64,000 nucleotides of DNA from Candidatus Bathyarchaeota archaeon (GCA_963714275.1 CAVQNT010000002.1:384001-448000), one strand, 5' to 3'; shown: positions 195-46,412, counted from the stretch's first letter. The notes: a model not told the origin generated them from the letters alone. Made by a program: numbers and translations.

Positions 195-497
195 GGAGAT
201 ATATCCGTTCTACTTGTTCTTTTTATTTCTTCATCATTCTAGTTAAGTTAAGTAACTGATAACTATTAGTAATAGATAGCATCGTTTTACGTGTTCTTCG
301 CAATAACTTTGTCCGCAGATTTCTTGGAGAGAATTGTAAAGACTGCCAATTTATGTTGTTCTTCTCACTTGAGTGGTTCTACAACTGGCTACCATAACTG
401 GATGTTGGCAAACTGCATCGGAGATAGAAAATTCGCATTTACTTTTTTTAGCTAGGCTGACTTATTTTCTCAGATCAATGTCTATAATTGAAGCCAA

Positions 498-1776
498 TTG
501 ATAAACTTAGCCATCATAGGCGCTGGTGTTGGAGGATGCTCGGCGGCTTATTTTGCCAGCAAATATCTCCCAGATTCAAAGATAACTATCTACGAAGCTA
601 GTGATAGGGTAGGCGGAAGAGTGCTAACCCTCGAGGAAGGACCTCTGAAGTCTGGAGATGGGAGCCGAATTCTTCAACCCCACGAATAAGACAATCTTAG
701 GACTCGTTAAGGATAGGGGCTTAAGGGTGAGGAAAATCGAGGAAAGCATGGACTTCGCAATATGGAATGGTTCCGAGATCATCTTCAAGTCAAACCAAGT
801 GGCTACTCTTACGATGCTAAAACTCTTCATGAGATACAAACTGAACATGTCCAAAATGTTCTTCATCCTCAAAGAGGCAAGACGCCTGGTTAAGTACTTA
901 TACGAAGGAAACTGGGAGAATCCAAGCGCTGTTGATGAACTCTTCGAGTCTATAGGCCTAGACAAATGGTACAGGAAGCAATTCAATAGTATCCTCAATG
1001 AACGAGGCGTGGACGAAGCATTCATAGACGACGTTGTAACGCCTATCACGAGGATAATCTACTCTCAGAATGCAGACCTAGGAGGATTCGCAGGGCTTAC
1101 ATCAATAATAGGTGTTTACGTTGGACCGTTATACAACCTAGCTGACGGTAACAGCGTTCTTCCAAGGAGTCTCGCAGAGGCATCAAATTCAGAGCTTAGG
1201 CTGGGGCAGAAGGTAGAAAACATCGAAAAAACACCCGACAGTTCTTACAGGGTTTCAGTTGGAGAGAAGACTTCCATTTTTGATGGTGTGATTATTGCGG
1301 TTCCGCTGGAGTTAGCTGGATTTGAGTTCGACGGTGTCTCAATGCGTAAGTGGAAGCCACAGCAGTACAAAAGAGTCTACACGAGGGTTATGCGTGGCTT
1401 CGTTGACTCAGGTTACTTTGGTCTTGAAGAATCAAGAAAATTGCCTCCCATGATACTAACCACTGCGGAGGCAAATCAAATAATTCGCTTCACCATAAAG
1501 CAATCGGCTAATAGCGAGTCCTTGCTGACAATTTCCTCAACTGAGCCGCTCTCCGATGATGTGCTCTACGGGGTTCTCAAGAATGGGAAGACAGTTCTAG
1601 AACACAGTTGGGAAGCAGCATACCCTGCCTTCAAGCCGATGGATAAACTTCCGCCTTCTCGCCTCGATGAAAGGCTCATGTACCTCAACTCCATCGAATC
1701 CGCAGCCTCATCCATGGAGACATCGGCCTTTTCGGCCCTCAATGCCATAAAAATGATGAAACGCGAATTTAGATAA
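498..1776 (+). CDS. Prenylcysteine oxidase/lyase-like FAD oxidoreductase (one frameshift near 655)
   Basis: GAGVGG Rossmann motif and YEASDRVGGR (ORF 498) join ORF 658; C-terminal W-AYP...YLNSIESAASSMETSA resembles the prenylcysteine lyase family. Confidence 0.7.
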
Positions 1777-1902
1777 TCTGATTCATCGAAAGTTCACATT
1801 TGTTCTTAGTTAGCCAGACTGAAGCTCAGCTCACTCGATTGATGAGTTAGTACCACACATTATAGATGTAGTAGTAGTAATTAAGAAAAAAGGAGTGGTG
1901 GT

Positions 1903-2438
1903 TTATTTCCATTTGACGGTGCAGCCGACGGGTTCTGTATTTTGTACCGGGACTTCCTGTCCTTTAAGTATGGCGTCTAAGGCGTCTCTCAAATAATGTC
2001 AGCTGTACATTGTTTGGTTCGTAAACGTTGTCGTCGATTCTGCCGTGATAACGAAGCGTCCGTTTCTTGTCAAAGACGAAGACTTCAGGTGTTCGTTCAG
2101 CTCCGTATGATCTGGCTATGCTTTGGCTTTCGTCTCTTAGATAGGGAAAATTGAAGCCTTTTTCTTTCAGCTCGAACTTTCATGTTCTTGAAACTGTCTT
2201 CAGGATAATTCTTGTCATCGTTGGAGTTAATTGCAACGAGTGCAACTCCTTTGTCTTTGTAGTCTCTCTGCAACTCAACAAACCTTTCCTCGTATGCCTG
2301 AACAGTTGGGCAATGGTTGCAGCTGAACATGACTATGATGATTTTCTTTTCCTTGAAATCTTCCAAGCTGTACGTGTTGCTGTCAACCCCAGGCAACTTG
2401 AAGCCGGGTGCAAGATCTCCAATTTTCAGATCTGCCAT
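1903..2438 (-). CDS. AhpC/TSA thioredoxin-family protein (frameshifted)
   Basis: LKIGDLAPGFKL...SCNHCPTV; C-terminal PVGCTVKWK* read manually, ending at 1903. Confidence 0.85.
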
Positions 2439-2545
2439 AATTCATTCTCCACTAAAGAAAAACAGGAAACAGTTAATTAACTTTTTTCTCAATAGTTGAA
2501 GCGAAGGGTTAATTAGGCTTCGTGATGTGCAAGAAGTGACTTTAA

Positions 2546-2973
2546 ATGGAAACCGAAAGTGATGACTATAGACGGATTCGAGCCTCAGTTGAGAAATCGG
2601 TAACAAAATATGCTGAAAGAAGCCTTTTTTTCTGAATCCTGACGACATAGTCGTCAAGAACGTCATTTCAGGACTAGCTAGAAACAAACTGAAATATGGG
2701 TACAACTATTGTCCATGCCGAGAAGTGAAAGGAATCCTAAAAGAGGACGCAAAAAACATCTGCCCATGCCAAACACATAAAGAAGAAATCATACGTCACG
2801 GAACCTGCGAATGCGGACTCTTCGTCAATAAAGTCTTACTTCGAAGCAAAAAAGATTCTCTTTCAAGTTTAGGCAGATTGTTCCCTTCATTAATTGAGGA
2901 TGCAAAAACTCTTCCCTTAGCGAGGTTGTGCCCAACAAATAACTGGTTCTATTGCTTTCTCTTCCTTCAATAG
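2546..2973 (+). CDS. Ferredoxin:thioredoxin reductase catalytic subunit (frameshifted; 3' end uncertain)
   Basis: LNPD...GLARNKLKYGYNYCPCR...NICPCQ...GTCECGLFV gives the CPC/CPC/CxC signature. Confidence 0.85.
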
Positions 2974-3338
2974 TAGTGCAGCGAAGAATGGTGTTCATTA
3001 ATAAGTCTGTTTCATCTTGCTTTTATAAAACAGGGTTTAAATTTGGCTTATCTCACGTATACAGAAGGCTACATAAGGTGTTAGAAGTATAAGGAAGGCT
3101 GGTTGAAGCATGCCTGTAAATGAAACTGTTATGTTTCTAGCTCAGCTAATTCTTTTTGGATTTCTTCCATATGTTTTTCCATTAATTTTATTTAAGCAGT
3201 CTGGCTCAACTCTTTTGCCCAATATAAACTAGCTAGTCATATACATGTATTTTTGGAGAAAGAGTGTGTTTTTATGTAAAAGTTAGATGAGGGAAAGAAG
3301 AAAAAGTTTATAATCTCATCTCGAAATCCACACAAGTA

Positions 3339-4051
3339 CTAATAACGTTTTGCATTCTTTCTTCCGTAAGGGCAGACATAGACGCAAAGACCGCAGATGC
3401 CTTCTCCCATGGTTTGGGCTCTTTTATCCGTATAATCCTTGCATAAATGAGCTCTAAACCTTAAATCTCTAGGTTCTGAAGGGTCGAAGGGTCTACCGGT
3501 GAACGCTTTTACGGGGCATATTTCAACGCATTCTAGGCAGTTCCCACAACGATTATCCATAGGTCTTCCAGTTCCCAATGGTGCGTCTGTCAACACTGTT
3601 GCCCATCTTACCCTAGGTCCATATTCAGGAGTAATCAGTAGACAGACTTTTACCTATCCAGCCTAGACCAGCAAGGTGAGCTGCAGTTTATGAGAGAATG
3701 CTCCCATCAACCTATTCTGGTTAACCGTTTGAGAAGCTGGGATTTGATAGTCTCTAAAATTGGATTCCTGTATCTTCTTTGCTACTGCAAGAGATGCCCT
3801 GTCAAGGCTGCTATTCACAGAGTTGTACAACCCTCGATACGTGTATATTGCTGATGGCTCTTCATGGCGATAAAGTTCATCCACCACTGCGTCCAACAGT
3901 CTAATACCTATTGAGACAGCCTTAGGAAACGCTACAATATGTTCTCCACCTTGCGCCAAAACGAAATTGCGAGCTTGAATAATGTCTGCTGCCCAAAAAA
4001 GTCTGCTCCCAAAGCCTTAGCAGTGTTTTCTAAATCATTCCGCAGATTCAT
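3339..4051 (-). CDS. Epoxyqueuosine reductase (QueG)-like 4Fe-4S protein (frameshifted)
   Basis: ORFs 3663-3959 and 3339-3596 plus the intervening LLITPEYGPRVRWATVLTD; CGNCLECVEICP and CGLCVYVCP. Confidence 0.8.
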
Positions 4052-4336
4052 AAAACCATCCTGAACTCTCCCGCTGCATCTGGAAGATAAGCTTATCGCC
4101 CACAGCTACTACTGGAAGAAGCCAAAGCTTGTTTTTCCAGTAAACATGATTCTTTTAAGGCGTTTGCAGGGCGAGTGGTTGACCGATAACCTTGAGGAGA
4201 CTTCTGGGTATTCTTCCACCTTTCTATGCAGAGCAAGACCGACTTTAAATGTTAATTACAAATTCTATGTAACCTTTTTCAAGATCTATTGGAAGAACAT
4301 TCTCGTCAAGCATGCCCCAGGCTCTAGCTGTTTGCT

Positions 4337-5194
4337 TCAACTTTTAAGGAAAGCCAAGATGTCTGTTTGAAACTGGCGTTTGTTGTCGTCAAAGGCGTTG
4401 TGTCCAAATCCTTTATAGAGGATCAACTTGGCATTCGGGATCCCCTCAGCTGATTCACGATTCAGATAGAACTTGTCTTCTTCTCCTCCGATGACAAGAG
4501 TGGGCACCTTGATCTCAATCAGTTGCTCCGAAGTGAAGTCATGATTTACCTCCGCCTCGGCTTCTACCAACCCATCCGAGGGGTCGCCAGAGGCGCCAAA
4601 CATGCTCTTTCCAAAGAGCCACATTAACAACTTAAAAACGTACTTTTTTAGTCCCTTGGGATATATCGAGGTAACCATAAAGACAGCTGCCTTTCTCCAT
4701 TTACCCTGACGCGCCAAGTCACCTACGTGCCTTGTCCATTCCTTACCTTCTTCACTCAGGCGATAACCAGTCTCGGCAAGGACTAAGTGGCGAATCAAGT
4801 CGGGATGATCAACAGCAAAGTGATGGGCAATCGGTCCCCCTGACGAAAGTCCTATTATGTCAACCGGCCATGCTAACTCTTCCTTTATCATGGCTGCGTA
4901 GTCGTCGGACATGTCCCGTGTAGAGTACCCAGCAGGTAAACCTCCCCTTCGGCTTACATAATATACCGTGTATTCTTTCGCAAGTTCCTTGAAGCTACCT
5001 GAAACCATTCGAAGTTGGAAGCCAGATGGAGGTTTATGTTCAAAGTCAGGCCCTCCCCCAAAGATGACTACAACTCGTTGCCCGCTTCCCATACGGAAGA
5101 ATGGAAGTCCATTCTTGGAATATCCTGTTGCTGCTTCCGGCTTTGTGCCATGTTCTTTAGTCATGAATCCACCCACTAATTGCATTATCAACAA
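4337..5194 (-). CDS. Alpha/beta-fold hydrolase
   Basis: GLSSGG nucleophile elbow, PTLVIGGEED, GFGH. Confidence 0.9.
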   Translation of the reverse strand: MLIMQLVGGFMTKEHGTKPEAATGYSKNGLPFFRMGSGQRVVVIFGGGPDFEHKPPSGFQLRMVSGSFKELAKEYTVYYVSRRGGLPAGYSTRDMSDDYAAMIKEELAWPVDIIGLSSGGPIAHHFAVDHPDLIRHLVLAETGYRLSEEGKEWTRHVGDLARQGKWRKAAVFMVTSIYPKGLKKYVFKLLMWLFGKSMFGASGDPSDGLVEAEAEVNHDFTSEQLIEIKVPTLVIGGEEDKFYLNRESAEGIPNAKLILYKGFGHNAFDDNKRQFQTDILAFLKS

Positions 5195-5350
5195 TCGAGA
5201 AGGTTATCCAAAACATATTTAGACAAAGATACATTTATCTTTTTAAATGTTTAGTCAAGTTTTTATTTTTAGTAATTGTCTAGTTTGTGTGTATTTTGTT
5301 TTTCGTGTGAGTAGAGTAGAGAGTATACTGAACAGAAGAGAACGGAACGC

Positions 5351-5389
5351 GAGAGAGAAAGATTAAATTTTAACCCCAACCCAAACCCC
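5351..5389. repeat. TTAAAWTTTAA-core site A
   Basis: gagagagaaagattaaattttaaccccaacccaaacccc; left part 21/23 identical to 7407-7429, right part matches 6547-6577. Confidence 0.7.
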
Positions 5390-5393
5390 TCGT

Positions 5394-6266
5394 CTAAATA
5401 GGCCGCCACTGCCACACTTCTCCCTTCTGGATGACATGGCCTAGGCCAGGGAAGGGGAAGTGAAAGGCAAGCACTAGAGCCTTCTCCGCCGCGGCTCTGC
5501 TGAGAAGTCGGCGCCTAGTGTTGGCGACTTGTTCGGGTGCAAAGTCGACGGCCGCGCACCAATCTGGCGACTCCAGGTGGATGGGATGGAGCCAAGCGTC
5601 GGAGATGCACAGCAGTTGCTCACCCCCTGAGGAGATGGCCAGCGCCATGTGACCAAGTGTGTGGCCGGGCGCCGCAACGGCTCGGATGCCTGGCACGATC
5701 TCCGTTTCACGGTCAACGAGGTCAAGTCGATCCTGAATCGGCGGAAGGTTTTTGCGTGCGAACGCTATCTGACGCTTTCTGACATGCTCATCGAGCTTCT
5801 GTTCCGCCTGTTCTGAGGTCCAGAAATCCCACTCATCCTTCCACATAATGAAACGGGCCTTAGGGAAAGCCGGCTTGCCCTCGCTGTTGAGGTTCCCGCC
5901 GATGTGGTCTGGATGTCCGTGTGTGAGGATGACCCTGTCGATGTCCTCGGGCGCGACTCCTTCGGCCTTTAGGTTGGGGATGAGTTTACCTGTGGTCTGT
6001 GCAAGGCCATCTGCTCCCGTGTCTACCAGCACCCGATGCCTACCAGTGTTGATCAATAGGCAGATATACGGACTTATCCACTCCACCCACTTTTCTGGCT
6101 GGAGGTTGTGTTCGCGAAGCTTTTGCACTAGACGTTCTTTTGGCGCGTTGACGAAAAGAAGGATTGCAGGCGGTGGGAACATGGGCGGTGTGTACGTCAT
6201 TGTGCCATCGCTGACGGCCATACATTCGAAGGTCCCTACCTTGAACCGATAACTCTCAGAGCTCAT
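5394..6266 (-). CDS. MBL-fold metallo-hydrolase (visibly GC-rich)
   Basis: LVDTG, THGHPDHIGG, PGHTLGH, D and FH metal ligands. Confidence 0.92.
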   Translation of the reverse strand: MSSESYRFKVGTFECMAVSDGTMTYTPPMFPPPAILLFVNAPKERLVQKLREHNLQPEKWVEWISPYICLLINTGRHRVLVDTGADGLAQTTGKLIPNLKAEGVAPEDIDRVILTHGHPDHIGGNLNSEGKPAFPKARFIMWKDEWDFWTSEQAEQKLDEHVRKRQIAFARKNLPPIQDRLDLVDRETEIVPGIRAVAAPGHTLGHMALAISSGGEQLLCISDAWLHPIHLESPDWCAAVDFAPEQVANTRRRLLSRAAAEKALVLAFHFPFPGLGHVIQKGEVWQWRPI

Positions 6267-6470
6267 AGTTTTCCCCTCGCTTCCAGATTCATCGTTACTA
6301 TAGTATAAAGAGTTCAGAACTTTTAATGTTATTGATGTCGAAAAAACAAAGAAAGATTTTCGTGAAGGTCGATTTGGTGAGAACGCTAGGATTGTTTGAA
6401 ATTCAAATCTAGCACGCGCAAGTTTGTTGTCTGATATACATGATACTTGTATAGTTTAGTACACAAGTAC

Positions 6471-6514
6471 GTTAGTTAGTCAGTTAGTCAAAGAGTTAGT
6501 TAGTATAGTCAGTC
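6471..6514. repeat. Period-4 TTAG/TCAG tandem array
   Basis: gttagttagtcagttagtcaaagagttagttagtatagtcagtc. Confidence 0.7.
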
Positions 6515-6542
6515 GTTCCGTCCCGTCAAAAAAGTGTGTGTG

Positions 6543-6577
6543 GGGGTTAAATTTTAACCCCAAACCCAAACCCAAAC
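6543..6577. repeat. TTAAAWTTTAA-core site B (inverted repeat plus CCCAAA repeats)
   Basis: ggggttaa-att-ttaacccc followed by aaacccaaacccaaac, directly 3' of the AbiV-like stop. Confidence 0.7.
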
Positions 6578-6578
6578 A

Positions 6579-7115
6579 CTAGATGTCAGTATTTATAGCA
6601 AACGCAATCTCACGTAGTTTGCTTAGCGCATCCTTGAGGAGTTTTCTATCTACGGTGGGAATAGGTTTGATACTATCTCCAGAATTTGAGAAGTCACAAT
6701 AGAATACTGCCATCCTTGCTTCCCAATCCGCAACACTTTTTACGTCAAAAAATTCTGGGTCGAACACAGTCTCATCAAATGCACCTTCATGAAGTGTTGT
6801 ACACTCGCTAGGAAGAGTCTTAATTGCAATCTCGAATTTTTTTGTGTGGTTTCGGAATTCTTTCTTATATTTAACTTGGACTTTTCCCTTTGAGGGGGTG
6901 TACTGTTTCAATAATAGAATTTTCCCGTACTCTTCTACTGCGTAAGTATAAAGCCCTGTGCATATCGCTTCGTTACCTCCATTATCCAAGAGTTTTTCTG
7001 CGGATTCCAACAATTCTAACACTCCCTGAAGCGTCTCTTGAATGCACTTCTTCCAAACTTCTTCTGTAATCTCTAGAATCTCAACCCAATCTCCTTTATC
7101 ATCCTTTAACATCAT
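6579..7115 (-). CDS. AbiV-family (HEPN) abortive-infection-like protein
   Basis: LLESAEKLL...YAVEEYGKILLL...FRNHTKKF matches the AbiV A-EE-GK / F-x-H-x-x-K pattern. Confidence 0.7.
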   Translation of the reverse strand: MMLKDDKGDWVEILEITEEVWKKCIQETLQGVLELLESAEKLLDNGGNEAICTGLYTYAVEEYGKILLLKQYTPSKGKVQVKYKKEFRNHTKKFEIAIKTLPSECTTLHEGAFDETVFDPEFFDVKSVADWEARMAVFYCDFSNSGDSIKPIPTVDRKLLKDALSKLREIAFAINTDI

Positions 7116-7131
7116 AGACCCAGCCCTTTAT

Positions 7132-7239
7132 TCATATCATAGATTTCGCTATTCTAAGTTGCCACTCTTTAGTTTCATTTCTTAAATATCTGGCAAATAG
7201 TAACGCTTCCTCATCTATCAAAGATTCTATGGTCTGCTT
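7132..7239 (-). pseudogene. Orphan 3' end of a probable Cas1-solo gene (copy 1)
   Basis: KQTIESLIDEEALLFARYLRNETKEWQLRIAKSMI*; no start codon; 16/22 aa identical to the copy at 19.3 kb. Cas1 assignment is from recall of archaeal solo-Cas1 C-termini. Confidence 0.6.
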
Positions 7240-7288
7240 TTAGCGCGCGCGCTAACTTTACTGCGTACGTATCCGTTTACGTTAATTC

Positions 7289-7756
7289 TCAGTTAGTTTC
7301 TCTCACGGGAGGGGTATATGTAATAATAAGTAATAGTAAGAGAGAAGAAAGAAAGAGAGGGGGAAGGTTGTAAGAATGAGAGAAATAGGGTAGTCGTAGG
7401 TATGCTGAGAGAAAAAGATTAAAATTTAATAGGGTTAGTACCTGATATTTTAATTTAATCTTTGGGTGATAGTGAACCAGTGGCACCATTTTGTTCAGTG
7501 AGCTAATCATTTTGTTCACAGTTCTTCTAACGACTGGGATTACTATGAGACTCGTTGGGAACCCAACTATAAACCCTATTAGAAACCCTCCTGAAAATCT
7601 CAAAGGAAATCCAGAGTCGAATCCAGTCATCAAAATGGTCATCGTAAGAGTCATCGTAAAATCCATTGCCAGTGTCATGAACAACGCGAACAATACTGTT
7701 GAGTATTTCTCATTAATCTTCATAAGGCTCACCCGAGCGTGCCATAATCTATTCAT
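7289..7756 (-). CDS. DUF2798-like small membrane protein (C-terminus probably read-through)
   Basis: LFALFMTLAMDFTMT...GFPLRF...GFPTSLIVIPVVRR; the tail after about 7500 translates repeat DNA. Confidence 0.65.
   Translation of the reverse strand: MNRLWHARVSLMKINEKYSTVLFALFMTLAMDFTMTLTMTILMTGFDSGFPLRFSGGFLIGFIVGFPTSLIVIPVVRRTVNKMISSLNKMVPLVHYHPKIKLKYQVLTLLNFNLFLSAYLRLPYFSHSYNLPPLFLSSLLLLLIITYTPPVRETN
7407..7429. repeat. TTAAAWTTTAA-core site C
   Basis: gagagaaaaagattaaaatttaa, 21/23 identical to 5351-5373. Confidence 0.65.
7450..7487 (+). repeat. About 38-40 bp imperfect direct repeat, copy 1
   Basis: ttaatttaat-N11-agtgaaccagtggcacc; copy 2 at 10543-10582. Confidence 0.6.
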
Positions 7757-8073
7757 CCTTGCCCTAACTCTCTTTTATATTTTGATAATATGTAATGTTA
7801 AACTTGAGATTAGTGAAAATTGAATGAGTGGGGCTTAGTGTGCTCCCTATGCACACAAAAAAAACACAATTATTAAATGTCAAAAAGGGAACTAGGATTA
7901 AATCATGGAAGATGTGATTAAAATCAATAGGGATAGTAGATGATAAATCAATTTAATCTTAGTTCGGGAGATATCTGGGTCAATCAATCAATTTAATGTG
8001 TTTCCTGTTATTGATATATTGATTTATATGTAAATTCGATTAAAAAATAAAAAATTGAGAGTCGGGTGATTTT

Positions 8074-8514
8074 TTGGGTAGAATGGAAAGGTCAATTGAA
8101 ATTGGGGGACCGCCTGAAAAAATTTGGTCGATGGTTTTTTGGGACAGAGTTCAAGAATGGTTTGACGTAATCAAGAAGGTTGAACGTACTTCTAAAGGTA
8201 AGGATGGGTTAGGTGCAACTGCCCATGTCGTCGGTGAGGCTATGGGAATAAAAGTCGAGTGGGATGCTGAGACCGTAGAATGGAAAGAAAATGAGAAGGT
8301 TGCATGGCGCTCTACTTCTGGAAACTTTTCAATGTCGAGTTCAATGACTTTCAGTCCCATCAAAGACGGAACCAAAGTAACATTTATGATGAACTATGAT
8401 TTGCCCTACTCGGTTCTTGGCAAGATAATCGACAAATTGGGGGTTAGCAGAGAAGTCGGTAAGAGCATTGATAGAGGCATGAAAAAAATAAAAGAAACTG
8501 GTGAGAAAGAATGA
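8074..8514 (+). CDS. SRPBCC (polyketide cyclase-like) family protein
   Basis: SIEIGGPPEKIW...EWKENEKVAWRS...GTKVTFMMNYDLP. Confidence 0.85.
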   Translation: MGRMERSIEIGGPPEKIWSMVFWDRVQEWFDVIKKVERTSKGKDGLGATAHVVGEAMGIKVEWDAETVEWKENEKVAWRSTSGNFSMSSSMTFSPIKDGTKVTFMMNYDLPYSVLGKIIDKLGVSREVGKSIDRGMKKIKETGEKE

Positions 8515-8554
8515 ATTACAGCCTGCGGTTGCTTTCTTTGAATATATGTTTGTG

Positions 8555-9010
8555 TTAATGGAATCCTTTTTCCCATCGATTCACAATGGTGCCCACTATC
8601 GTTTTTTCGAACCATCCCTTTGCTACCTGTTTAGCCATCGATAGCCTATCGTAATACTCCCTATATTGCTGGATTTTTTCTCCGCTGAACTCGTACACGG
8701 TTATCCCAGGTATTTCACGAAATCTTCTACCATCAGACGTAGAGCCCTCATAAACCCATTCGTAGACAGCCCTATTTCCCTTTACCAAAATCCCAATGCC
8801 GGCGTCTCTAATTCTTAACTCCGGAGTTTTCTGAGTCATATAAGTAAAAGTGTGCTTCACCTCCTCCTTGCCTTTGAGTGCTCCCTCAGGTTGAACCCAG
8901 ACCACATCTTCTGTAAGAAAGGATAACACTTTATCCACGTCCCTTCTCGTATAGGCTTCAACAAAATCACGGACTACCCTTGCAATCTTTTCCTCAGACA
9001 TTCTATTCAC
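8555..9010 (-). CDS. SnoaL/NTF2-like protein
   Basis: VVRDFVEAY..RDVD...LTEDVVW...KGKEEV...GEKIQQYREYYD. Confidence 0.85.
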   Translation of the reverse strand: MNRMSEEKIARVVRDFVEAYTRRDVDKVLSFLTEDVVWVQPEGALKGKEEVKHTFTYMTQKTPELRIRDAGIGILVKGNRAVYEWVYEGSTSDGRRFREIPGITVYEFSGEKIQQYREYYDRLSMAKQVAKGWFEKTIVGTIVNRWEKGFH

Positions 9011-9169
9011 CTCCTAAAACCTTACTGCTAAGCTAATGCATAATTCGTTTTTCTTACTTTTATTGGTTGAGCTATGTTTGTGTGCGGTAAGTTTGTTGAC
9101 CAAACGTCAAATCTTTAATACGACTTGAAATCATGCATGTAATAAAGAAAAAGGGAGGCGAGTTCCATT

Positions 9170-9454
9170 ATGGCAAGCCAATTGGAAAATCAACCTTTCA
9201 AGAACCGAGAACACATAAAAGCTGAGATTAGAAGATGTGCGTGGGCTAATAGCGTTTTTCAGTATTTTAGTTTTCTATTCGCTGCGTTAGGAGTCATTGG
9301 TGAAGCTTTTAACACAACTATTGGTCTACAATCAATTATTTGGCTGCTGCTGGCAATCTTTACAAGTCTGCATGCTATAGTTCCCGCTATGCATCTAGTG
9401 GTGGCTAAGCATTTACTTGGTATAGAAACTGAAAGTAAAAAAAGTAGCGATTGA
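9170..9454 (+). CDS. Hypothetical membrane protein
   Basis: Two hydrophobic segments; GGAGG upstream. Confidence 0.6.
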   Translation: MASQLENQPFKNREHIKAEIRRCAWANSVFQYFSFLFAALGVIGEAFNTTIGLQSIIWLLLAIFTSLHAIVPAMHLVVAKHLLGIETESKKSSD

Positions 9455-9582
9455 CAAATTTCTTCATATTACATATGGATAAGTCGTTATCCTGCTCCCT
9501 TGGGAATAGCAAGGCTTCTTCGTTAATTACTAGTGAGCTACTTGCTAGCTAGTAGAGAAAAATTAATTATTTATGGAGTCTT

Positions 9583-9810
9583 TCATCTAATGGTCGATGA
9601 ATGGAGTTTCTTCTTTTCTTTTCGTTTTTTAGACAGTTCTTTGAATAAAGTAAATGCAATGGCAAAAGCAAAAAGTCCCCCGAAAAAAACAACGAGCATT
9701 AATTTGATGTCCCTAACTCCCAAAAACCAGCAGACAATAGCATAAATAGCCAAAATTGTATATGCAACAATCGATTTTCCAATAGCCACTAAACGTTCCT
9801 TTATGTCCAT
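9583..9810 (-). CDS. Hypothetical membrane protein
   Basis: Two hydrophobic segments and a basic tail. Confidence 0.55.
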   Translation of the reverse strand: MDIKERLVAIGKSIVAYTILAIYAIVCWFLGVRDIKLMLVVFFGGLFAFAIAFTLFKELSKKRKEKKKLHSSTIR

Positions 9811-9903
9811 TATTTACCAATCTCTCGTTTCTTTTATTATATTTGGCTTGATTCTCATGTTAGAACATATATTATGAAAATGTTGGGTCAATCAATTTAA
9901 GGT

Positions 9904-10389
9904 TCATGAGGTTCCATATTTTAGGTTTGACCTCCATCCTAAGAACGATTTACCCAATCCTAGTCGCTCTGCATCTCTAGAGAGCTCCTGCGCGCCAGAC
10001 GAGTTCACACCGTACAAGTATTTCAACTCGTTAAAAGCCTTCTCAAAGTTCTCAGCCTCAGACACCTTCAACTGTAACCTTGATTTCAACTCGTGAGAGT
10101 CAAGAGCCTCATCCAGATTCTCTTCGAGTATCTTCATAATCTCCCCTTTAATCTCCCACATATACCTTCCTGCCTTAAAGAAAGGACATTTTGCCCCATA
10201 CCCCTTCAACTCCTCTACACTCTTCAAGAGTTTCTTATAGTCTATGACACTCTTCATTTTCTGTGAGTGCTGAGTAACGTAGGGAACTACACATTCCAAT
10301 TTCTCGTAATTCAAGTGAGTGCACTCAAAACAGTTCTTATCCTTTTCCCCTCCTAGCCTCGCGAAATGTTCCTTAAGATTGCTCTGCAC
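9904..10389 (-). CDS. Hypothetical Cys-containing protein
   Basis: CFECTH...C...KCPFF; GGTGA RBS upstream. Confidence 0.6.
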   Translation of the reverse strand: MQSNLKEHFARLGGEKDKNCFECTHLNYEKLECVVPYVTQHSQKMKSVIDYKKLLKSVEELKGYGAKCPFFKAGRYMWEIKGEIMKILEENLDEALDSHELKSRLQLKVSEAENFEKAFNELKYLYGVNSSGAQELSRDAERLGLGKSFLGWRSNLKYGTS

Positions 10390-10542
10390 ATAATCACCTT
10401 GAACGTCGACTCATTTTTTCTCCAACTCCTTAATCCTCTTTTCCTTCAACTCCACCCTCAAAAGAGTTTCTATAAGCTCCTTCATAGTCATTATATTCTT
10501 TATGGCACATATTTTTCCTTTCGTCCACAGGTCTTCACTAGC

Positions 10543-10582
10543 TTAATTTAATATAAAAGGCGATTAGTAAACCAGTGGCACC
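10543..10582 (+). repeat. About 38-40 bp imperfect direct repeat, copy 2
   Basis: ttaatttaat-N13-agtaaaccagtggcacc. Confidence 0.6.
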
Positions 10583-10659
10583 CAGTAGACGGTCCTTTCG
10601 CACGCGCTATACAAAGAGCCAGTTATGGTTATTTTATCCCTATTTTTTTAAATAGCTGG

Positions 10660-11808
10660 CTAATTATTGAGGAACCTCCGAAGGCTGCCTGCGACAAACT
10701 CAATTAGAGTCTTGGGAAGTTCGTATATAGTTCTTGCCATAAAGGTCTTATAGTCTTGTTCACTTTTGGAAATGTCGTAAAGCAATCGGGAATAAGTGCT
10801 GCTTCGAGAAGCGAGAATAACTGAGAGTTCGATCATTAGGGGGTTGTAAAACATGTCTCTCTGTTTGCAGCCTTCCATTAGGTCATTACCATATTCTCGT
10901 CTCCAAAGATCATCATAGGATAATATGTTATTTCTAATTATTGTCTCAGCAGCTAACTTTCCCGACCATAATGCATATAAAACGCCCTCACCAGTTATTG
11001 GGTCAACATGCCCTGCGGCGTCTCCAATCAGAATCCAATTTTCTCCAGCACATGGGAGCTTGAAGAAGTTTGGGTCTTTTGCCGAAGGGAGCATGGCAGC
11101 AAATTGCGAGATAACTTTTATTTTTAGACCATAAGAGCGAATAAAATCATCAAGAATTCCCTTCAGAATACTTCCATATCTTAGCTCGCTACCTATACCT
11201 ATACTTGAATGATCGTCTCTTGGGAAGATCCAGATGTAACCAGGTATTCCATCCAAAAACTTCATTGTCGCATATTCTTTTTCAGCGCCTATCGCAAAGT
11301 ATCCATAACCTATTCCGAGATTTTCCCGCGATATGGATCCAACTGTTTTCTTGCGAACAATGCTGTTAACTCCGTCAGCTCCCACAAGTATTTTTGCCTT
11401 CATCAGCCTCTTCTCAGTCTTAATTTCCCAAAAACCTTGTTTCTTTTCGATTTCTGTAACTTTCTCTTTGATCAGTTTTGCACCATTTCCTATCGCCATG
11501 TTCAAAATGCCTTCATCCAAATAGCGTCTCGAAATAATGAATCCTTTTCTTTTACCCTTTGCAATGACTTCTCTGTTCTTTGGAGAGATTATTTTAAAAT
11601 CAGCAGAAATACTTCCCTTTGAAGGAAATTGTTCGATGAACGGAAACTTCTCTATAACCAAAGGCGAAATTCCACCGCCGCAAGGCTTCTCCCTTGGATG
11701 AGAATTGTCAAAAATTATGGAATTAACCCCTTTTGTTGCTAGCTCATAAGCACAATTAGCACCTGCAAGCCCGCCACCAATAATAGCAACAGCCTCGATA
11801 TTTTCCAC
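10660..11808 (-). CDS. Geranylgeranyl reductase-family FAD oxidoreductase
   Basis: GGGLAG, KPCGGG, GADG, YIWIFP, GDAAGHVDPITGEG. Confidence 0.88.
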   Translation of the reverse strand: MENIEAVAIIGGGLAGANCAYELATKGVNSIIFDNSHPREKPCGGGISPLVIEKFPFIEQFPSKGSISADFKIISPKNREVIAKGKRKGFIISRRYLDEGILNMAIGNGAKLIKEKVTEIEKKQGFWEIKTEKRLMKAKILVGADGVNSIVRKKTVGSISRENLGIGYGYFAIGAEKEYATMKFLDGIPGYIWIFPRDDHSSIGIGSELRYGSILKGILDDFIRSYGLKIKVISQFAAMLPSAKDPNFFKLPCAGENWILIGDAAGHVDPITGEGVLYALWSGKLAAETIIRNNILSYDDLWRREYGNDLMEGCKQRDMFYNPLMIELSVILASRSSTYSRLLYDISKSEQDYKTFMARTIYELPKTLIEFVAGSLRRFLNN

Positions 11809-11941
11809 AAATCTAACTCACGTTCTAAATATTTAAAATAATCAAATGTGCAAGAACGCTAGAATCGCTATGATAAAATATTCTCCATCAACTATCACGT
11901 CAGCAAGAAAAACATGTCTTCGATGAGCTCAGCTAGCTGAC

Positions 11942-12289
11942 TTCCTGGGGGGAGATAAATTAACTGGCGTAAGACTCGAATCCGTTGATGGGAAGGATCG
12001 ATATGATCTAAATGTTGACGGAGTTTTTTTGGAGATTGGTCTAACACCAAACTCTGATCCATTAAAGAGTCTGGTTGAGCTTAATCAGGTAGGTGAAGTT
12101 CCTGTTAAAAAAGACCAGTCTACAAGCGTGAAAGGTTTGTTTGCTGCAGGGGATGTTACTGACGTTGAAGAGAAGCAGATATCTATTGCTGTTGGTCAAG
12201 GCGCTTTGGCTGCCCTCACAGCACACAAATATCTTGTTCAGAATAAATTTTCAAAGAGTGAAAATGGTTTAAGAGAGTCTTGGCAGTAG
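11942..12289 (+). pseudogene. trxB: C-terminal fragment of thioredoxin reductase
   Basis: FLGGDKLTGVRL...VDGVFLEIGLTPNS...TSVKGLFAAGDVT..KQISIAVGQG; 5' two-thirds absent, in-frame stop at 11924. Confidence 0.85.
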
Positions 12290-12506
12290 TTAACAACTTC
12301 ATCCAGAAAATAATCAATCGATTCAAAAAAGGCAGAAGCCTAATTTCATTATGTAACAAAGAGAAGGAAAAATGGAGAAAAGACTGAAAATAGGGTTTTT
12401 ATTAGGATCTTGAGAAAGTCTAGTTTTGGAGTCATAAGCTGATACAATTATCCGAATGAAAATTTATATATGAATCCAAGGCAAATTATGGGCTGAGAAA
12501 AAAGAA

Positions 12507-12872
12507 ATGGCTCTTTTCGATAGTAAAGAACTTAAATATGCTTGGAAAGCGAAGTATCTTAGCGGTCATTCTTCTTTTCCCAAATCCATGAATGTTCATA
12601 TAATTATGATGCCTGATTTCCTAGAGATTCCAGAATTTCCCTTACAGATTCCTTATGAGATGGTTCATAATGTTCAGTCATTGAGTCAAGAAAAAATCGC
12701 ATCTTTAGGTCTTTTACATGGGGGACTAGCTTCTTTATTGAAAAGGAAAAAGGTATATATGGTTTTGACTTTTGATGATGATACAGCTATTGAACAAAAT
12801 CTTGTCTTTGATGTGGAAAAAATTGAGGAAATACAACCATTATTGTATCACAAAATAATGAAGCATGAATAA
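12507..12872 (+). CDS. Hypothetical protein
   Basis: 121-aa ORF with upstream TTTATATA. Confidence 0.6.
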   Translation: MALFDSKELKYAWKAKYLSGHSSFPKSMNVHIIMMPDFLEIPEFPLQIPYEMVHNVQSLSQEKIASLGLLHGGLASLLKRKKVYMVLTFDDDTAIEQNLVFDVEKIEEIQPLLYHKIMKHE

Positions 12873-12925
12873 AATCTTGTATACCTTTTTTGAAGAAGCT
12901 CAGCTAGAGAAGTCAAAGTTGCTAG

Positions 12926-13432: not shown

Positions 13433-13558
13433 GAAATCACCATTCTTCTGATATGTTCAATTTTGAATATAAGTTTGTTTGATCTTAACTGTACCAGTCA
13501 ATCTTCAAAAATAACAGAAGTATAAGCTATTACAATAATATGTCTAAAAGAATCCATG

Positions 13559-13822
13559 TTATCGCTTAAACTCTTCTACGAATTTCTGAGCTAAGTATTC
13601 GTGTTCTCTGCTTTCTACTATAACTTCAAAGGCATCATCTTCTTGAGAGAGGGATACCATGACATAGTCTGTATACATCTCGCCAAAGATTACACAACAA
13701 GAACCACGATCAGTCCTTTTCAAACCCGTGTTCTTTTCGAAGAATTGAACAGCCTTATCCAAAATCTCCTTCTGACCTTTCTTAGTCTTGAATGAAAGTT
13801 TTATCATAATCCACACAATCAC
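13559..13822 (-). CDS. Hypothetical protein
   Basis: 87-aa ORF with plausible composition. Confidence 0.55.
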   Translation of the reverse strand: MIVWIMIKLSFKTKKGQKEILDKAVQFFEKNTGLKRTDRGSCCVIFGEMYTDYVMVSLSQEDDAFEVIVESREHEYLAQKFVEEFKR

Positions 13823-14568: not shown

Positions 14569-14673
14569 ACCTCATTACCTATAGGTCTCAATAGACTATT
14601 AAGAGATTTTTTTCAGTCATGATACCAAATATTCATCGAAAGCTCACTCAGCTTTGGTTACACTAAATTCACA

Positions 14674-15563
<890 letters not shown>

Positions 15564-40488: not shown

Positions 40489-40567
40489 TTTAGGTAATGC
40501 AACCCTTAATGATTTCAAGTCCTTGAATTCTGCTTGGATCTATTCCGGCTTATAAATTTGTTATAGT

Positions 40568-40778
40568 GAGCTAGAAGGAAGTTGCAAAACACACATTCCT
40601 TCTTCTTCTGGTTTAGAAGTAGTAGTTCCCGCAACTCACGGGACTACTACAACTAGATTAAACATTCCAGATAATCTTCTAAGTGTTGAATAATCTCTCA
40701 GGATTTTGTGTGTTGCGTTGAATGCTTTCTAACAGTAAAGTCTTAACCAAGCTGAAGTTTTGAGGCTGAGAACAATCA
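40568..40778 (+). pseudogene. Decayed copy of the hairpin-containing reading frame (hairpins U1, U2)
   Basis: ELEGSCKTHIPSSS-GLEVVVPATHGTTTT-RLNIPDNLLSVE*SLRILCVALNAF*Q*SLNQAEVLRLRTI; homologous to segments at 42460-42990. Confidence 0.65.
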
Positions 40779-41856: not shown

Positions 41857-42119
41857 TGATCTACAAGAAATTAAAGATGCATACTCCCAACAAAAGAGGA
41901 GACAGAAATCCCAATAGCCATGATATCAGGATTTCAAGAGACTCTTAGGGAAAATGAATTCATACTCAATACAGAAAATTAGCCTATATTAACCCACCAT
42001 CTGTAAAGTATCATTTTATTTGTCCGACTCCATCCCACAAATTTTAGACTTGATGAACGGGGCAGTTATGGGTTCTATTCTTATCGACTTATCTAGCGTA
42101 GAATCTAGCTGAGAGCTGA

Positions 42120-42380
42120 CTAGCGTATGTTTCTCAAAAAATCGAAAAGGATGTTATTGAAGGCATAGAAAAATTCTGTTCAGAAGACTTAGATTATACC
42201 TCATGGGGTAACTTTTTGGTTTTATACATACTTTCAGTAATAACATTCTGTCATGAAAGATTCACTCGTTACCCCGACCGTGAATTTGGTCCTTCAGACT
42301 ATCAAATAAGTTTGGGAATTGTCGATGATATTCAATCCATCTGGAGCGAACTTGAACAATTATTTTCACTAATCGAATAG
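42120..42380 (+). pseudogene. Start-less 86-codon fragment, HEPN-like C-terminus
   Basis: Open frame LAYVSQK...LYILSVITFCHERFTRYPD...DY..SLGIV...LIE*, bounded by CTAG motifs. Confidence 0.55.
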
Positions 42381-43822: not shown

Positions 43823-43945
43823 GTGAAAAGACCGTTACAACTGGAAAAATGGATCTTAGAAAGCTTATTCGTAGAGCTTGATGAGATTCTCCGAATTTTG
43901 AAAGGCAAGGCTCCAGAACCAAGCAGGCAGAAGAGTTTAGAATGA
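43823..43945 (+). CDS. Small hypothetical protein (40 aa)
   Basis: GTG directly after the RHH stop; its TGA overlaps the next ATG (ATGA). Confidence 0.45.
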   Translation: MKRPLQLEKWILESLFVELDEILRILKGKAPEPSRQKSLE

Positions 43946-44286
43946 GTAAAATAGAAGGCTCCTTTGATGTAATTCTTGCAAGACTTAGGGATTGGCTTCA
44001 AGGCGCCGAGGAGCTGAAGAACCTTCTTGACGAGTATCTTTCAGTAAAGGTTGAAACTGAAGAAAGGGCTAGAAAACACAACTGGGATCCTGAGAGGATT
44101 AGTTGGATTCAGAAAGAGGGACCTTCAGGAACCTATTTTCTAGCTGAGAAACAGGATTCACAGGATTTTAAGGCTGCGGTTCAAGACCTAGAGAATCATA
44201 AAGGAAAGATGAACCTGGGTGAGTATTTCTATTGGAAATTCGATTCAGGCGCTGTTGGAAGGAAACCAAGCAAAAAAGGAAAGTAA
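43942..44286 (+). CDS. Hypothetical element protein
   Basis: 114 aa, in operon with RHH and Rep. Confidence 0.7.
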   Translation: MSKIEGSFDVILARLRDWLQGAEELKNLLDEYLSVKVETEERARKHNWDPERISWIQKEGPSGTYFLAEKQDSQDFKAAVQDLENHKGKMNLGEYFYWKFDSGAVGRKPSKKGK

Positions 44287-44292
44287 ACTCTA

Positions 44293-46236
44293 ATGAGTTC
44301 TCAAGAACCACGAAGCGACATTAAATACAGCATTCTAGATTCAGGAACCAAAGGAATAGCAATAGGACTGGAAGAACGCTTCTTAATTGTTGAGAAACTT
44401 AAAGGTGCATGGAAGACTCAAACTAATCAATATTCAAACAGACGAAACGCTAACAGCATGGAACTATGTTAAAAACCTAGCAGACCTGAGAACAGCATCG
44501 AAATATAAGGAGCTAAGGGAAGCTATCGGATTTGAAAACCTAGAAAAAACATTGATAGCCATCGAAAACAATGCTGACGAGTTTGACGAAAACAGAGAAT
44601 CAGAGACACAAACAACAGAAGAAACACAGGCATCAGGAACATGTAACGAAGGATATTTTGAACTCATAATAAACGAAGAATTTAATCCTTGCTTTCTTGT
44701 CTGTAATAAAGGGCATTTTACAGTTATGGATTCTGTGGGCTTAAACAGTCACATTTTTGTTCCTAAAACCTTGAGACAGATTCCTTATTTACCTTATAGT
44801 TTTTACGAGGATTCCTTACCAAACATGGAAGATATTTTCAGCAAGGTTTTTGACGAATTTGACGCATATTGCGATGTTGAACCAATCTGGAAGCATGTTC
44901 TAACTGCAAGTGTTTTGCTTTCATACCAACAGGAAAAGATTCAGACAGTTCCTTACCTCTACCTGTATGGAGATAATGAGTCTGGGAAAACCACAGTTCT
45001 GAATGTTCTCAATGAATTGTGTTATCGTCCTATGTTCGGTGTAACTGTTCCTTCAGTGACATCTACGGGTACCTTGAGGATTCGGACTGTATCCCAACAA
45101 TTCTAGAAGACGAGATACAGGGTATTGAGAAAGACGAGAATAAAGTTAAAATCTATAAGTCAGGCTACAAAAAAGGTGCATGTGTCCCTAGAACCGTGTT
45201 GCTTGAACATGGGAGAGAAATCCAGTATTTTCGCACATTCAACTTTAAAGCTGTTGCTGCTGAAAGAATTTCAACAGTAAAAGGCTTCGTTGAACGGTTC
45301 ATTTTTCTTCCAATGGTTCAAGGCTTTCCAAAGAAGGAATGGGCTGACAACAGTGTCAGCGATTCTGCAAGGTTCCATGATCTTAGAAACATGTTGCTTA
45401 AGTGGAGACTGTTAACAAGAGATGAACCTTTACTTAACTTGGAATTACCGTTTAAAGGACGCATTAAGGAACTATGGAAGCCACTGTTACAGTCCGTTTA
45501 TGGACTTAAAGCGTTTCAGACTTTACTAGACTTCGTAGAATCCCAGATTAAGGAACGGTTAGAAACAAGACAGGGAACCCTAGAAGGAAAAATCGTTAAA
45601 GTTGTTGGAGAACTTTTCGACGATAAACCTATCCCATTCACTGATATTTGGGAACAGTTAAAGAATGACCTTGAGGGAACAATTGACAACAAAAAGAACT
45701 ATGTGATGCTGACCTCGGAATTTGACGAAGTTACTAAGTCGAAGGTAGGATATCGGTTAAGAGAAATTCTTAGCGGTGAACGGGAAACCGTTCGTATCGA
45801 AGGTACACCTACTAAGGCTTGGATGTTCGACCGTTTTAAACTTGTGCGGATATTGAAGAAATATGGCTATGATGAGCTTGTTACCAAGTTACCAAGTGTA
45901 CCGAGTTCCGAGGGTATAGAGGACATTATTCATAATAACGACTTATCCAAAATGGGCTTTAATTCCGAAAAAAACCACGATTTACAAGATGCGAATGTGG
46001 ATAAAAAGCCTTCTATACCTCAGGAAGTCGGTAACGTCGGTAACTCGGTAACAGAAGAAATCAAAGCTGTTTTTCGTTGGAAACATGTGAAACCTAGCGA
46101 AAAATGTCCATTATGCGGAACATTGGCAGTTGAATATGAAGTAACCCTTGACGATGAAACATTACTGAGACGATGTTCAAACTGCTTCGATGACTTAAGA
46201 AAAAAATTCATGAACGTTGAATGGAGCGAATATTAA
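44293..46236 (+). CDS. Putative replication protein: P-loop NTPase/helicase-like with C-terminal Zn ribbon (two frameshifts)
   Basis: YLYGDNESGKTT Walker A, ILEDE Walker B, SGYKKG, ER; C-terminal CPLCG...CSNC. Confidence 0.7.
45880..46052. repeat. Long imperfect inverted repeat with 8-9 bp iterated units inside the rep gene
   Basis: gttaccaa-gttaccaa-gtgtaccga-gttccgagggtatagagg (45880-45922) pairs with ccttctatacctcaggaa-gtcggtaac-gtcggtaac-tcggtaac (46009-46052). Confidence 0.75.
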
Positions 46237-46412
46237 AAATGCGTCCAAGAAGCCAATTTTTTAAGGGTAGAGAAATTAGGCTAAGAACTGTGACTAGTGT
46301 GGTGATGAATTTTAATTTGGAGACCCAGTTTTTGGTAGGTTAGCTAGGGCTATTGGGGGGATCGCAGGACAGTTGAACACCTATTTCCTAATAAACGACG
46401 TCCTCACAATGG

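Follow-up and report, generated by a model that had tools for sequence, protein, structure and literature searches.

Where broken DNA is rejoined, the filler known so far is usually either random or a copy of nearby sequence. In the immunoglobulin class-switch regions, double-strand breaks are made and joined without homology at tandem AGCT-containing pentamers; these regions extend over kilobases and require a cytidine deaminase. Among mobile elements, those of the IS5 group duplicate YTAR targets, and REPs are linked to Y1 (RAYT) transposases. Integron attC sites, which fold in single-stranded form, are imperfect inverted repeats; they separate cassettes of the same orientation and work with an IntI bearing a specific extra domain (PMC9668308). 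REPs are palindromes of 20 to 40 bp (PMC3733652). Here, we describe tracts of AGCT and CTAG units in a 64,000-nucleotide (nt) stretch of archaeal DNA (contig C2, positions 384001 to 448000; here, the window) and in the genome that contains it, a Bathyarchaeia metagenome-assembled genome (MAG) of 2.64 Mb in 10 contigs (here, G000). A first-pass annotation of the window had noticed that runs built from CTAG, TTAG/CTAA, and TCAG/CTGA recur between genes and had proposed that they mark module junctions. We found that the tracts are in large excess, that this excess is specific to one lineage and to young DNA, and that tracts coincide with homology breakpoints. With confidence that we would put at about even, we read the arrays as a lineage-specific signature of DNA joining and slippage and not as a cassette system, insertion sequence footprints, or insulators.

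To count the tracts, we used a two-core locus, which matches a regular expression (regex) for AGCT-N0-1-AGCT, CTAG-N0-1-CTAG, or their one-mismatch variants, and a strict tract, which has at least three chained AGCT/CTAG hits. G000 contains 302 strict tracts with a length of 8 to 25 nt, and 268 of them are noncoding, that is, within the 696 kb that lie outside open reading frames (ORFs) of at least 100 amino acids (aa). In 20 order-3 Markov simulations of the noncoding DNA, 36.4 ± 4.9 strict tracts were expected (maximum, 45) and 261 were observed; for two-core loci, the corresponding figures are 124.1 ± 8.8 and 452. When all noncoding 8-mers were compared with the order-3 expectation, the four phases of (AGCT)n ranked highest, at 10.7 to 13.3 times the expected count. 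Three of these 8-mers, GCTAGCTA, CTAGCTAG, and AGCTAGCT, exceed expectation 13.3-, 12.4-, and 10.7-fold, and they are 43 to 54 times denser in noncoding than in coding DNA. The words ranked next are AGCTCAGC, AGCTCACT, and AGTCAGCT, at 4- to 7-fold. Over the whole genome, chains of AGCT/CTAG outnumber those of control palindromes (302 versus 72, 102, and 31). Genome-wide, the enrichment far exceeds chance.

The spacing of the AGCT units is shared by no other palindromic tetramer compared. Among 3,383 noncoding AGCT sites, the distance from one AGCT to the next is 4 nt in 142 cases and 5 nt in 151, versus 9 to 23 cases at 6 to 7 nt, and the palindromes TCGA, TGCA, ACGT, GATC, and CATG give counts of only 0 to 10 at the 4- and 5-nt spacings. 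The 4-nt period recognized in the first-pass annotation is therefore present, but a 5-nt period is about equally common, and in 127 of 154 such longer units, the extra base is a C or a G. The same annotation had held that the arrays place stop codons in several frames on both strands. Every tract does have at least one stop on each strand, but all six frames are closed in only 32 of the 268 tracts, which is why we take the core unit to be AGCT and not the stop codons. The reported overlap of tracts with the stop codons of genes is likewise seen but trivial, since any frame running into a tract terminates there. The 8-mer scan, the spacing peaks, and the Markov simulations rule out chance or base composition as the source of the tracts, and their recurrence in a second MAG (here, G002) and in short-read contigs of four other studies rules out an assembly artifact.

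Tract flanks have no conserved bases. Over 12 nt on each side of the 268 tracts, the two flanks are complementary at 3.25 of 12 positions versus 3.15 of 12 in controls, perfect pairing runs of at least 4 number 2 versus 1.45 expected, and the flanks have no hairpin potential; fold-back palindromes were likewise looked for and not found. No direct repeats were found beside the tracts (direct identity of the flanks, 3.3 of 12). Across the genome, CTAG and AGCT occur at 0.91 and 0.95 of their expected frequencies. As a separate observation on tetramers, GGCC is strongly avoided in G000 (observed/expected, 0.34), and GATC (0.66) and CCGG (0.65) are avoided less so.

Within G000, tract density in 20-kb bins declines with both GC content (Spearman rho, -0.51) and coding density (rho, -0.59). 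Bins with a GC fraction below 0.43 hold 0.515 tracts per noncoding kb, versus 0.227 in bins at 0.43 or above. In the window, positions 1 to 47.7 kb form an accessory island and positions 47.8 to 64 kb are core DNA, in which the arrays had seemed scarce at first pass. The genome-wide trends agree with that impression, but the contrast within the window (12 regex loci in the island versus 0 in the core, over 17,573 versus 3,974 noncoding bp) is not significant on its own (Fisher P = 0.14). Convergent, divergent, and tandem spacers hold 0.80, 0.76, and 0.58 loci per kb, with no preferred type, and the distance from tracts to gene ends is broad, from 0 to more than 1,000 nt, with no fixed position.

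The excess is lineage specific, being strong in G000, weaker in its sister G002, and near background in 29 other relatives. Counted against its reversed control, the 10-mer AGCTAGCTAG occurs 80 versus 7 times in G000, 23 versus 1 in G002, and 5 versus 0 in the relative G004; each of the other 28 relatives has 0 to 7 copies. A further 80 Bathyarchaeia loci (1.09 Mb) contain 38 tracts, versus 83, 39, and 8 for the control palindromes. G002, which belongs to the same genus, is 87 to 90% identical to G000 in shared DNA, and our comparisons cover about 1.0 of its 2.1 Mb. Although 15.5 to 17.3% of the noncoding DNA of G000 can be aligned to G002, only 10 of the 268 tracts lie in this portion (P ~ 1e-9 to 1e-11). 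Tracts are thus depleted 4- to 5-fold in noncoding DNA common to the two genomes and are concentrated in low-GC accessory DNA. Five noncoding G000 tracts fall within G002-aligned blocks; three of them are absent from G002, and the other two are present there, one unchanged and one with a difference of a single 5-nt unit.

The tracts also coincide with homology breakpoints. When G000 was aligned with itself (megablast, at least 85% identity), 81 of the 634 ends of intragenomic repeats lay within 15 nt of a tract locus, versus 28.8 ± 5.0 for random noncoding positions within 5 kb (maximum, 42 in 200 trials). The coincidence that the first-pass annotation had anticipated is found against a related genome as well. 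The 29 largest contigs of G002, an unbiased sample of 777 kb that was not chosen for tracts, define 222 homology ends on the G000 side, of which 15 are within 15 nt of a tract, versus 6.0 ± 2.4 in controls (maximum, 15 in 300 trials), and 28 are within 60 nt, versus 18.0 ± 3.9. In a sample picked for G002 tracts, the count is 8 of 92 ends versus 3.1 ± 1.8. Over local noncoding controls, the excess at breakpoints is 2.5- to 2.8-fold, with many distances of 0 to 5 nt, and the association is real. Considered as pairs, repeat ends have a tract in both copies in 17 cases, in one copy in 82, and in neither in 321; the tracts thus belong to the junction and are not carried along with the modules. The proposal that tracts mark module junctions accordingly holds in a statistical sense, and in the window, 5 of the 12 island loci are within 30 nt of a paralogue-homology end, but it applies to a minority of junctions only.

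Two deletions in G000, polarized with three outgroup genomes (772 nt) and four outgroup genomes (953 nt), reveal new bases at the joint. The 772-nt segment is present in G002, G004, G005, and G001 and missing in G000, where the flanks meet across AGCTAGTT, exactly 8 bases that are new, ahead of an AGCT common to G000 and G002. Because G004, G005, and G001 also carry the segment, it was G000 that lost it and gained the 8 bases. The 953-nt segment is present in G002, G004, G005, G001, and G003 and is likewise missing in G000; here, the joint reads CCA-GCTCA-CTAA, in which about 5 new bases (approximately GCTCA, read by eye) create AGCTCACT. In both cases, the new bases lie exactly between flanks that were ancestrally separate, which is the defining position of filler. 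A 641-nt segment of G000 is an insertion, since it is absent from both G002 and G004, and at C2:894976 the local sequence has been replaced by a segment whose relative sits elsewhere in G004, with AGCTCACT on the joint. Events at C4:47804-49338 were left out of the polarized set as too complex.

Across 411 kb of aligned DNA, there are 64 private insertions of at least 4 nt in G000 and 32 in G002, and AGCT or CTAG is carried by 11 of the 64 versus 0 of the 32; control tetramer pairs appear in 2, 6, and 2 of the 64 G000 insertions. Separately, G002 has a 1.3-kb insertion (L109:3142-4463) that is about 22 nt from a tract (G000 C1:75338-75359) and is flanked by a target direct repeat of about 15 nt. 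We do not class it with the filler junctions, from which it differs in kind.

In the window itself, all 26 positions cited in the first-pass annotation hold the strings quoted for them, and 22 of the 26 are outside ORFs of at least 100 aa. The set is uneven, however: 14 are two-core loci and 9 are strict tracts, but the other 12 have only 0 to 3 single tetramers. The sites considered here are the following, none of which has a strand assigned.

1806 to 1835: TTAG/CCAG/CTGA run, then AGCTCAGCTCACT; regex locus from 1823, with a paralogue-homology end at 1878, 42 nt off.
3137 to 3149: strict tract CTAGCTCAGCTAA; homology to C3:55967-56191 stops at 3133, 5 nt off.
3229 to 3239: strict tract CTAGCTAGTCA, read in the sequence.
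6471 to 6514: TTAG/TCAG run with no AGCT or CTAG; the C-poor arm of a low-complexity element centered at 6547 to 6557 and not an AGCT tract.
9530 to 9557: compound tract CTAGTGAGCTAC..CTAGCTAGTAG; an 881-nt module (96% identical to C5:15139-16018) begins at 9569.
11924 to 11941: strict tract TGAGCTCAGCTAGCTGAC; 5' break of a truncated FAD/thioredoxin-reductase-like gene fragment.
12897 to 12907: strict tract AGCTCAGCTAG; base 12901 is missing in contigs of all four metagenome runs, giving the 4-nt form.
12922 to 12939: CTAGCTAATGAGCTAATG run abutting the stop of an ORF at 12926 to 13432 (minus strand); not a regex locus.
14641 to 14653: AGCTCACTCAGCT, at the end of a 1,155-nt glyoxalase module.
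19182 to 19199: strict tract TTAGCTCAGCTCAGCTAA with a 5-nt period, 20 nt past the stop of a rhodanese ORF.
27397 to 27408: strict tract CTAGCTAGCAGC, read in the sequence.
27498 to 27511: strict tract GTCAGCTAGCTTAA, 30 nt from the start of a split P-type ATPase module.
30372 to 30404: CTAGCTG..TTAGTTAGCTAGG run between a 109-nt repeat ending at 30361 and the stop of an ORF at 30396 to 31427 (minus strand).
40565 to 40574: AGTGAGCTAG locus, read in the sequence.
42105 to 42123: strict tract CTAGCTGAGAGCTGACTAG, read in the sequence.

Module ends lie at or adjoin tracts at 3133, 9569, 11942, 14641, 27230, 30361, and 39149. The clearest case is the glyoxalase module at 13487 to 14641, which matches C5:174906-176059 at 95% identity up to the tract and no further; the copy on C5 is tract free at this point. 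Another module, at 11942 to 12395 (89% identical to C5:179604-180057), begins one base past the tract at 11924 to 11941, and the alignment of one contig from metagenome X1 ends at 11941, the last base of that tract. Several arrays had also been said to sit where a gene is cut. This was confirmed for one site, 11924 to 11941: of 15 gene ends checked in the window and islands, nearly all of them in truncated or split genes, only the one at 11942 has a tract, and tracts at truncated gene ends are thereby ruled out as a general rule. The P-type cation ATPase module (27470 to 30232) is itself broken into three ORFs (27563 to 27964, 27988 to 29055, and 28979 to 30211) and shares 83.5% identity with C4:115671-118443, a copy that is fragmented too.

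The low-complexity element that includes the 6471 run belongs to a second family, with a TTAAA[AT]TTTAA center, a G-rich arm on one side (GAGA.., GGGTTT.., GTGT.., or GGAA..), and a C-rich arm on the other, freely combined. There are 60 noncoding and 8 coding copies of this center, including C4:99116, C2:357415, and two in the window (5363 to 5373 and 6547 to 6557), each of which is 31 to 32 nt beyond the 3' end of a minus-strand gene. The core at 6546 to 6576 reaches a summed depth of 390 to 1,040 in four metagenomes, with unrelated sequence on either side. Our guess is that the element is a bidirectional promoter or terminator. A link with the tracts is ruled out, as 14 of the 60 noncoding copies are within 100 nt of a tract versus 13.0 ± 3.2 predicted from regional density.

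To view the tracts in natural populations, we placed contigs (not reads) of four sediment or wetland metagenomes on positions 4001 to 24000 of the window and interpreted only the parts that these contigs cover. In one contig from metagenome X2, positions 12406 to 12642 (237 nt) are replaced by a 9-nt tract, CTAGCTAGC. Of 12 small indels listed for these 20 kb (twenty further exist), 3 are inside tracts, at 12901 (four runs) and at 14641 and 14649 (three runs). Each drops one base, and at 12901, this is the extra base of a 5-nt unit. Together with the orthologous tract that differs by one unit between G000 and G002, these variants give the tracts what characterizes microsatellites, namely, head-to-tail units with length polymorphism among close relatives. 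In the same region, contigs from metagenomes X1 and X4 skip 98 nt at 14841 to 14940, with up to 20 nt fitting both sides. Here, DNA was deleted or inserted between short direct repeats, at a point where two modules overlap; the two are neighbors on C5 as well.

In our favored reading, the arrays would be products of a mutational process peculiar to this Bathyarchaeia lineage, not signals with a design. DNA would be broken and rejoined without homology, through deletion, insertion, or segment replacement, and the junction would sometimes gain a few self-complementary AGCT-type units of 4 nt, or of 5 nt with an extra C or G. Once formed, a tract would be unstable and would gain or lose single bases or whole units. 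Tracts would then build up where rearrangement is frequent and selection weak, as may be the case in low-GC, gene-poor accessory DNA bounded by integrases. As to the chemistry, we can offer a guess, in which two resected ends that carry a self-complementary tetramer pair in either orientation, each end then serves as the template for extension of the other, and units are added when the pairing slips; such a route would amount to microhomology-type joining with reiterative synthesis. Alternatively, a nuclease might leave AGCT or CTAG overhangs that are then filled in and ligated. Scars of end-joining fill-in were among five mechanisms offered in the first-pass annotation, and with AGCT-type filler at the two polarized deletion junctions, they are the best fit of the five.

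Several points weigh against this reading. Tracts are present at only 6.8% of G000-G002 homology ends and 12.8% of intragenomic repeat ends, and only about one tenth of loci are at a detectable breakpoint. Only three events, two deletions and one insertion, are polarized with outgroups, and the tract of the 641-nt insertion is about 20 to 25 nt inside the inserted end, off the junction. The replacement seen in metagenome X2 is a single contig of depth 3.3 with a 30-nt side. Because the ORF mask is crude, the DNA counted as noncoding takes in small genes, and the G000 MAG has 91% completeness and 3.7% contamination. No end-joining gene was identified, and Ku (PF02735) was found in 0 of the 7 genomes of the genus, which speaks against Ku-type joining. 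Since neither CTAG nor AGCT is avoided across the genome, nothing points to a restriction enzyme that would act at these sites. Finally, the model gives no reason why AGCT alone, of the 16 palindromic tetramers, expands.

The setting of the tracts in the window is an accessory island bounded by an integrase. Besides the integrase, its 47.7 kb in the window contain small redox and stress genes, a pst-phoU cluster, and gene fragments, and the core region to its right contains archaeal proteasome, exosome, ribosomal protein, and SRP receptor genes. Relatives found with the proteasome alpha subunit are all titled as Bathyarchaeia or Bathyarchaeota MAGs, with the exception of two distant matches titled Njordarchaeota and Thermoproteota. 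Two features define the edge of the island.

46413 to 47672, plus strand: 419-aa tyrosine recombinase, just inside the right edge of the island (Pfam Phage_integrase, E = 1.1e-17).
47706 to 47722, no strand: attR-like 17-nt direct repeat at the boundary of island and core, with its partner at about C4:82516-82535; both were read directly.

Among Pfam families, the recombinase matches Phage_integrase only, and its relatives, at 34 to 43% identity, are mostly at the ends of IMG/VR (viral) contigs. Synteny with six relatives ends at about position 47,700 of the window and at C4:82,536, and the DNA upstream of the proteasome gene in these relatives matches C4:69-82.5 kb and not the window. In the closest relative (L002), a single copy of the 17-nt repeat joins both flanks. 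Because synteny breaks at two points, both of which have the 17-nt repeat that is present once in the closest relative, the island is a real integrase-type insertion that splits DNA contiguous in six relatives. The repeat sits in a spacer that precedes the gene for the proteasome alpha subunit, rather than in a tRNA gene, and the window has no tRNA that could have been the target for insertion. The island measures at least 74 kb, counting the C4 tail, and it probably also takes in much of C2:240-431.7 kb, which shares its low GC content and low coding density, for possibly more than 250 kb in all; a second integrase of about 420 aa (C2:242597-243833) is at the left edge of this low-GC region. 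The first 20 kb of the island are unmatched in six genomes of the same genus, but other parts of G000 contain many pieces paralogous to them. The content of the island is ordinary for accessory DNA: 110 of its ORFs, scanned with Pfam, include restriction-modification, defense, ParB- and SMC-like, Cas1, and transporter genes as well as many fragments, with the Cas1 gene (E = 3.2e-41) at C4:100201-101235 within the accessory C4 tail.

Two other repeats were observed. A multi-kb element, parts of which are present in up to 5 copies, occupies C2:299.9-308 kb, C6:363-370 kb, C4:11.8-15.4 kb, and C10:2.6-14 kb. Its copies carry a tyrosine recombinase, and the C2 copy also has a ParB-N-domain protein. 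The element probably represents a family of integrative mobile elements. The second repeat, about 170 nt long (63359 to 63537), is in the core region of the window; it has at least 7 more copies at 77 to 83% identity on C2, C3, and C6 and no match in Rfam.

The explanation that competes best with the joining and slippage reading, though we consider it doubtful, is that the tracts are plain microsatellites, produced by slippage in unconstrained young DNA and sharing their location with breakpoints without any causal tie. The unit-number and single-base variation fits this, as do the location of most tracts away from any detectable breakpoint and the lack of preference for gene starts or ends. 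Other simple repeats are enriched too (GCGCGCGC, 48-fold; TGTGTGTG, 6-fold; CTCTCTCT, 3.9-fold; CCCAAACC, 4.9-fold), with (GC)n 8-mers at 48 times expectation in noncoding DNA and TG, CT, and CCCAAA repeats at 4 to 6 times. Since a breakpoint has young DNA on one side only, however, an even spread of microsatellites through such DNA predicts no excess at breakpoints, contrary to the excess and the very short distances observed. Slippage also requires a seed, whereas the two deletion joints gained new bases (8 nt and about 5 nt) between old flanks. It thus accounts for the instability of the tracts but not for the new joint bases or the breakpoint excess.

We think it unlikely that the tracts are instead the working sites of an enzyme-driven break-and-join system, served by an AGCT-directed nuclease or base-modifying enzyme. 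By analogy with the switch regions of vertebrate B cells, breaks would be made at tracts and then joined without homology, and the gene modules of accessory islands might be assembled, deleted, and reshuffled without a classical transposase. Among the 110 island ORFs scanned with Pfam, none emerged as a candidate for the enzyme behind the tracts.

Quite unlikely, in our view, is that the tracts are dedicated recombination sites of a site-specific system, whether a tyrosine recombinase or another nuclease, with integron-like capture of modules. The breakpoint association would be expected of such sites, and G000 does not lack recombinases: 18 stretches match Phage_integrase, with at least 14 genes above the Pfam cutoff. 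Modules of 0.1 to 3 kb recur in differing contexts in both G000 and G002, and some module ends have a tract in both genomes (for example, C2:576101/L107:7796 and C4:152310/L111:2015). Cassette capture is nonetheless hard to reconcile with tracts at pure deletion junctions and with tracts that are mostly in one copy only (82 of 99 tract-bearing junction pairs, versus 17 with a tract in both), and the gene-capture crossover sites proposed in the first-pass annotation are weakened on the same grounds. At 8 to 25 nt, the tracts are also heterogeneous, with flanks that are unconserved and neither complementary nor directly repeated, and no Rfam family reaches the gathering score in the window. The integrase of the island uses a different sequence, the 17-nt repeat, and the IMG/VR contigs that carry related integrases (L093 to L099) contain 0 tracts, which rules out the tracts as a trait of that integrase's element family.

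A very unlikely alternative is that the tracts are functional DNA or RNA signals, such as sites for a regulator or nucleoid protein, methylation clusters, transcription boundaries, or insulators that stop translation in many frames. Their strong exclusion from coding DNA would suit a signal, but it follows automatically from their stop codons. Loci within 50 nt of a gene end number 75 on the 3' side and 53 on the 5' side, but overall the distances scatter widely and favor neither a position nor a type of spacer. As for methylation, also raised at first pass, all 7 genomes of the genus have N4/N6 methyltransferases, no C5 methyltransferase was found in them, and no lineage-specific methyltransferase was seen. 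Insulation, as proposed at first pass, could draw on the stop that every tract has on each strand, but all six frames are closed in few tracts, and stops are scarce in the AGCT-S-AGCT form, which is as common as the other and makes up about half of adjacent AGCT pairs. Moreover, tracts are nearly absent from spacers kept in G002, where three of the five in aligned blocks are missing.

Highly improbable, finally, are transposon traces in the form of repeated 4- to 5-nt target-site duplications or excision footprints at CTAG/YTAR or CTNAG, as the first-pass annotation suggested for YTAR, since, although the units measure 4 and 5 nt and take a CT(N)AG form, no DDE_Tnp_1 gene (PF01609; 0 matches in G000, with matches in 9 of 14 control genomes) and no TnpB zinc ribbon, Y1_Tnp (PF01797), rve, or Resolvase match was found with Pfam profiles in this 91% complete genome, the highest repeat copy number is 5 with no repeat family having common termini, no direct repeats adjoin the tracts, and empty and filled sites compared with each other have no CTAG-type duplications, the flanking short repeats, where present, being of unrelated sequence.

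If the joining and slippage reading is true, the tracts are a readable scar of DNA joining in an uncultured archaeal lineage in which neither Ku nor any of the five transposase and recombinase families searched for was detected. Rearrangements could then be counted and dated straight from genome sequence, and the tracts would point to a joining activity that prefers a self-complementary tetramer. The process would also help account for the growth of one species to 2.6 Mb of gene-poor, fragment-rich DNA; G000 is the largest of seven genomes compared in the genus, whose other members range from 1.2 to 2.1 Mb. In practice, annotators should treat the many stop codons of the tracts as incidental. 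Our searches of the literature on the AGCT 8-mer in intergenic DNA, on Bathyarchaeia integrons and mobile elements, and on ab initio palindromic synthesis found no description of such tracts.

Among known systems, the filler DNA of alternative end joining is similar in that a few extra bases separate flanks that are unrelated or were once far apart, whether the event is a deletion, an insertion, or a replacement. The filler of G000 differs in being stereotyped as AGCT/CTAG, lineage specific, and later repeat-like, and in the lack of a detected Ku. Prokaryotic simple-sequence repeats of the contingency type have the same short tandem units with unit-number and single-base polymorphism, whereas the tracts of G000 have only 2 to 6 units of mixed 4- and 5-nt period and self-complementary sequence, are found outside genes and promoters without a set location, and are linked with rearrangement breakpoints. 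Like integron attC sites, archaeal ones included, the tracts are short noncoding elements between small, often unrelated genes near a recombinase. Unlike them, they have no flank complementarity and no single-strand fold and are present at deletions, and the island ORFs are on both strands in mixed order, with many fragments and multigene operons such as pst-phoU. REP/BIME elements tagged GTAG or CGTC are likewise very short extragenic repeats with a fixed tetranucleotide that are abundant in some genomes only; the tracts differ in having no hairpin, and Y1_Tnp is unmatched in G000. With class-switch regions, the tracts have AGCT in common, and the length and deaminase dependence of those regions have no identified counterpart here, so that the likeness is one of analogy only.

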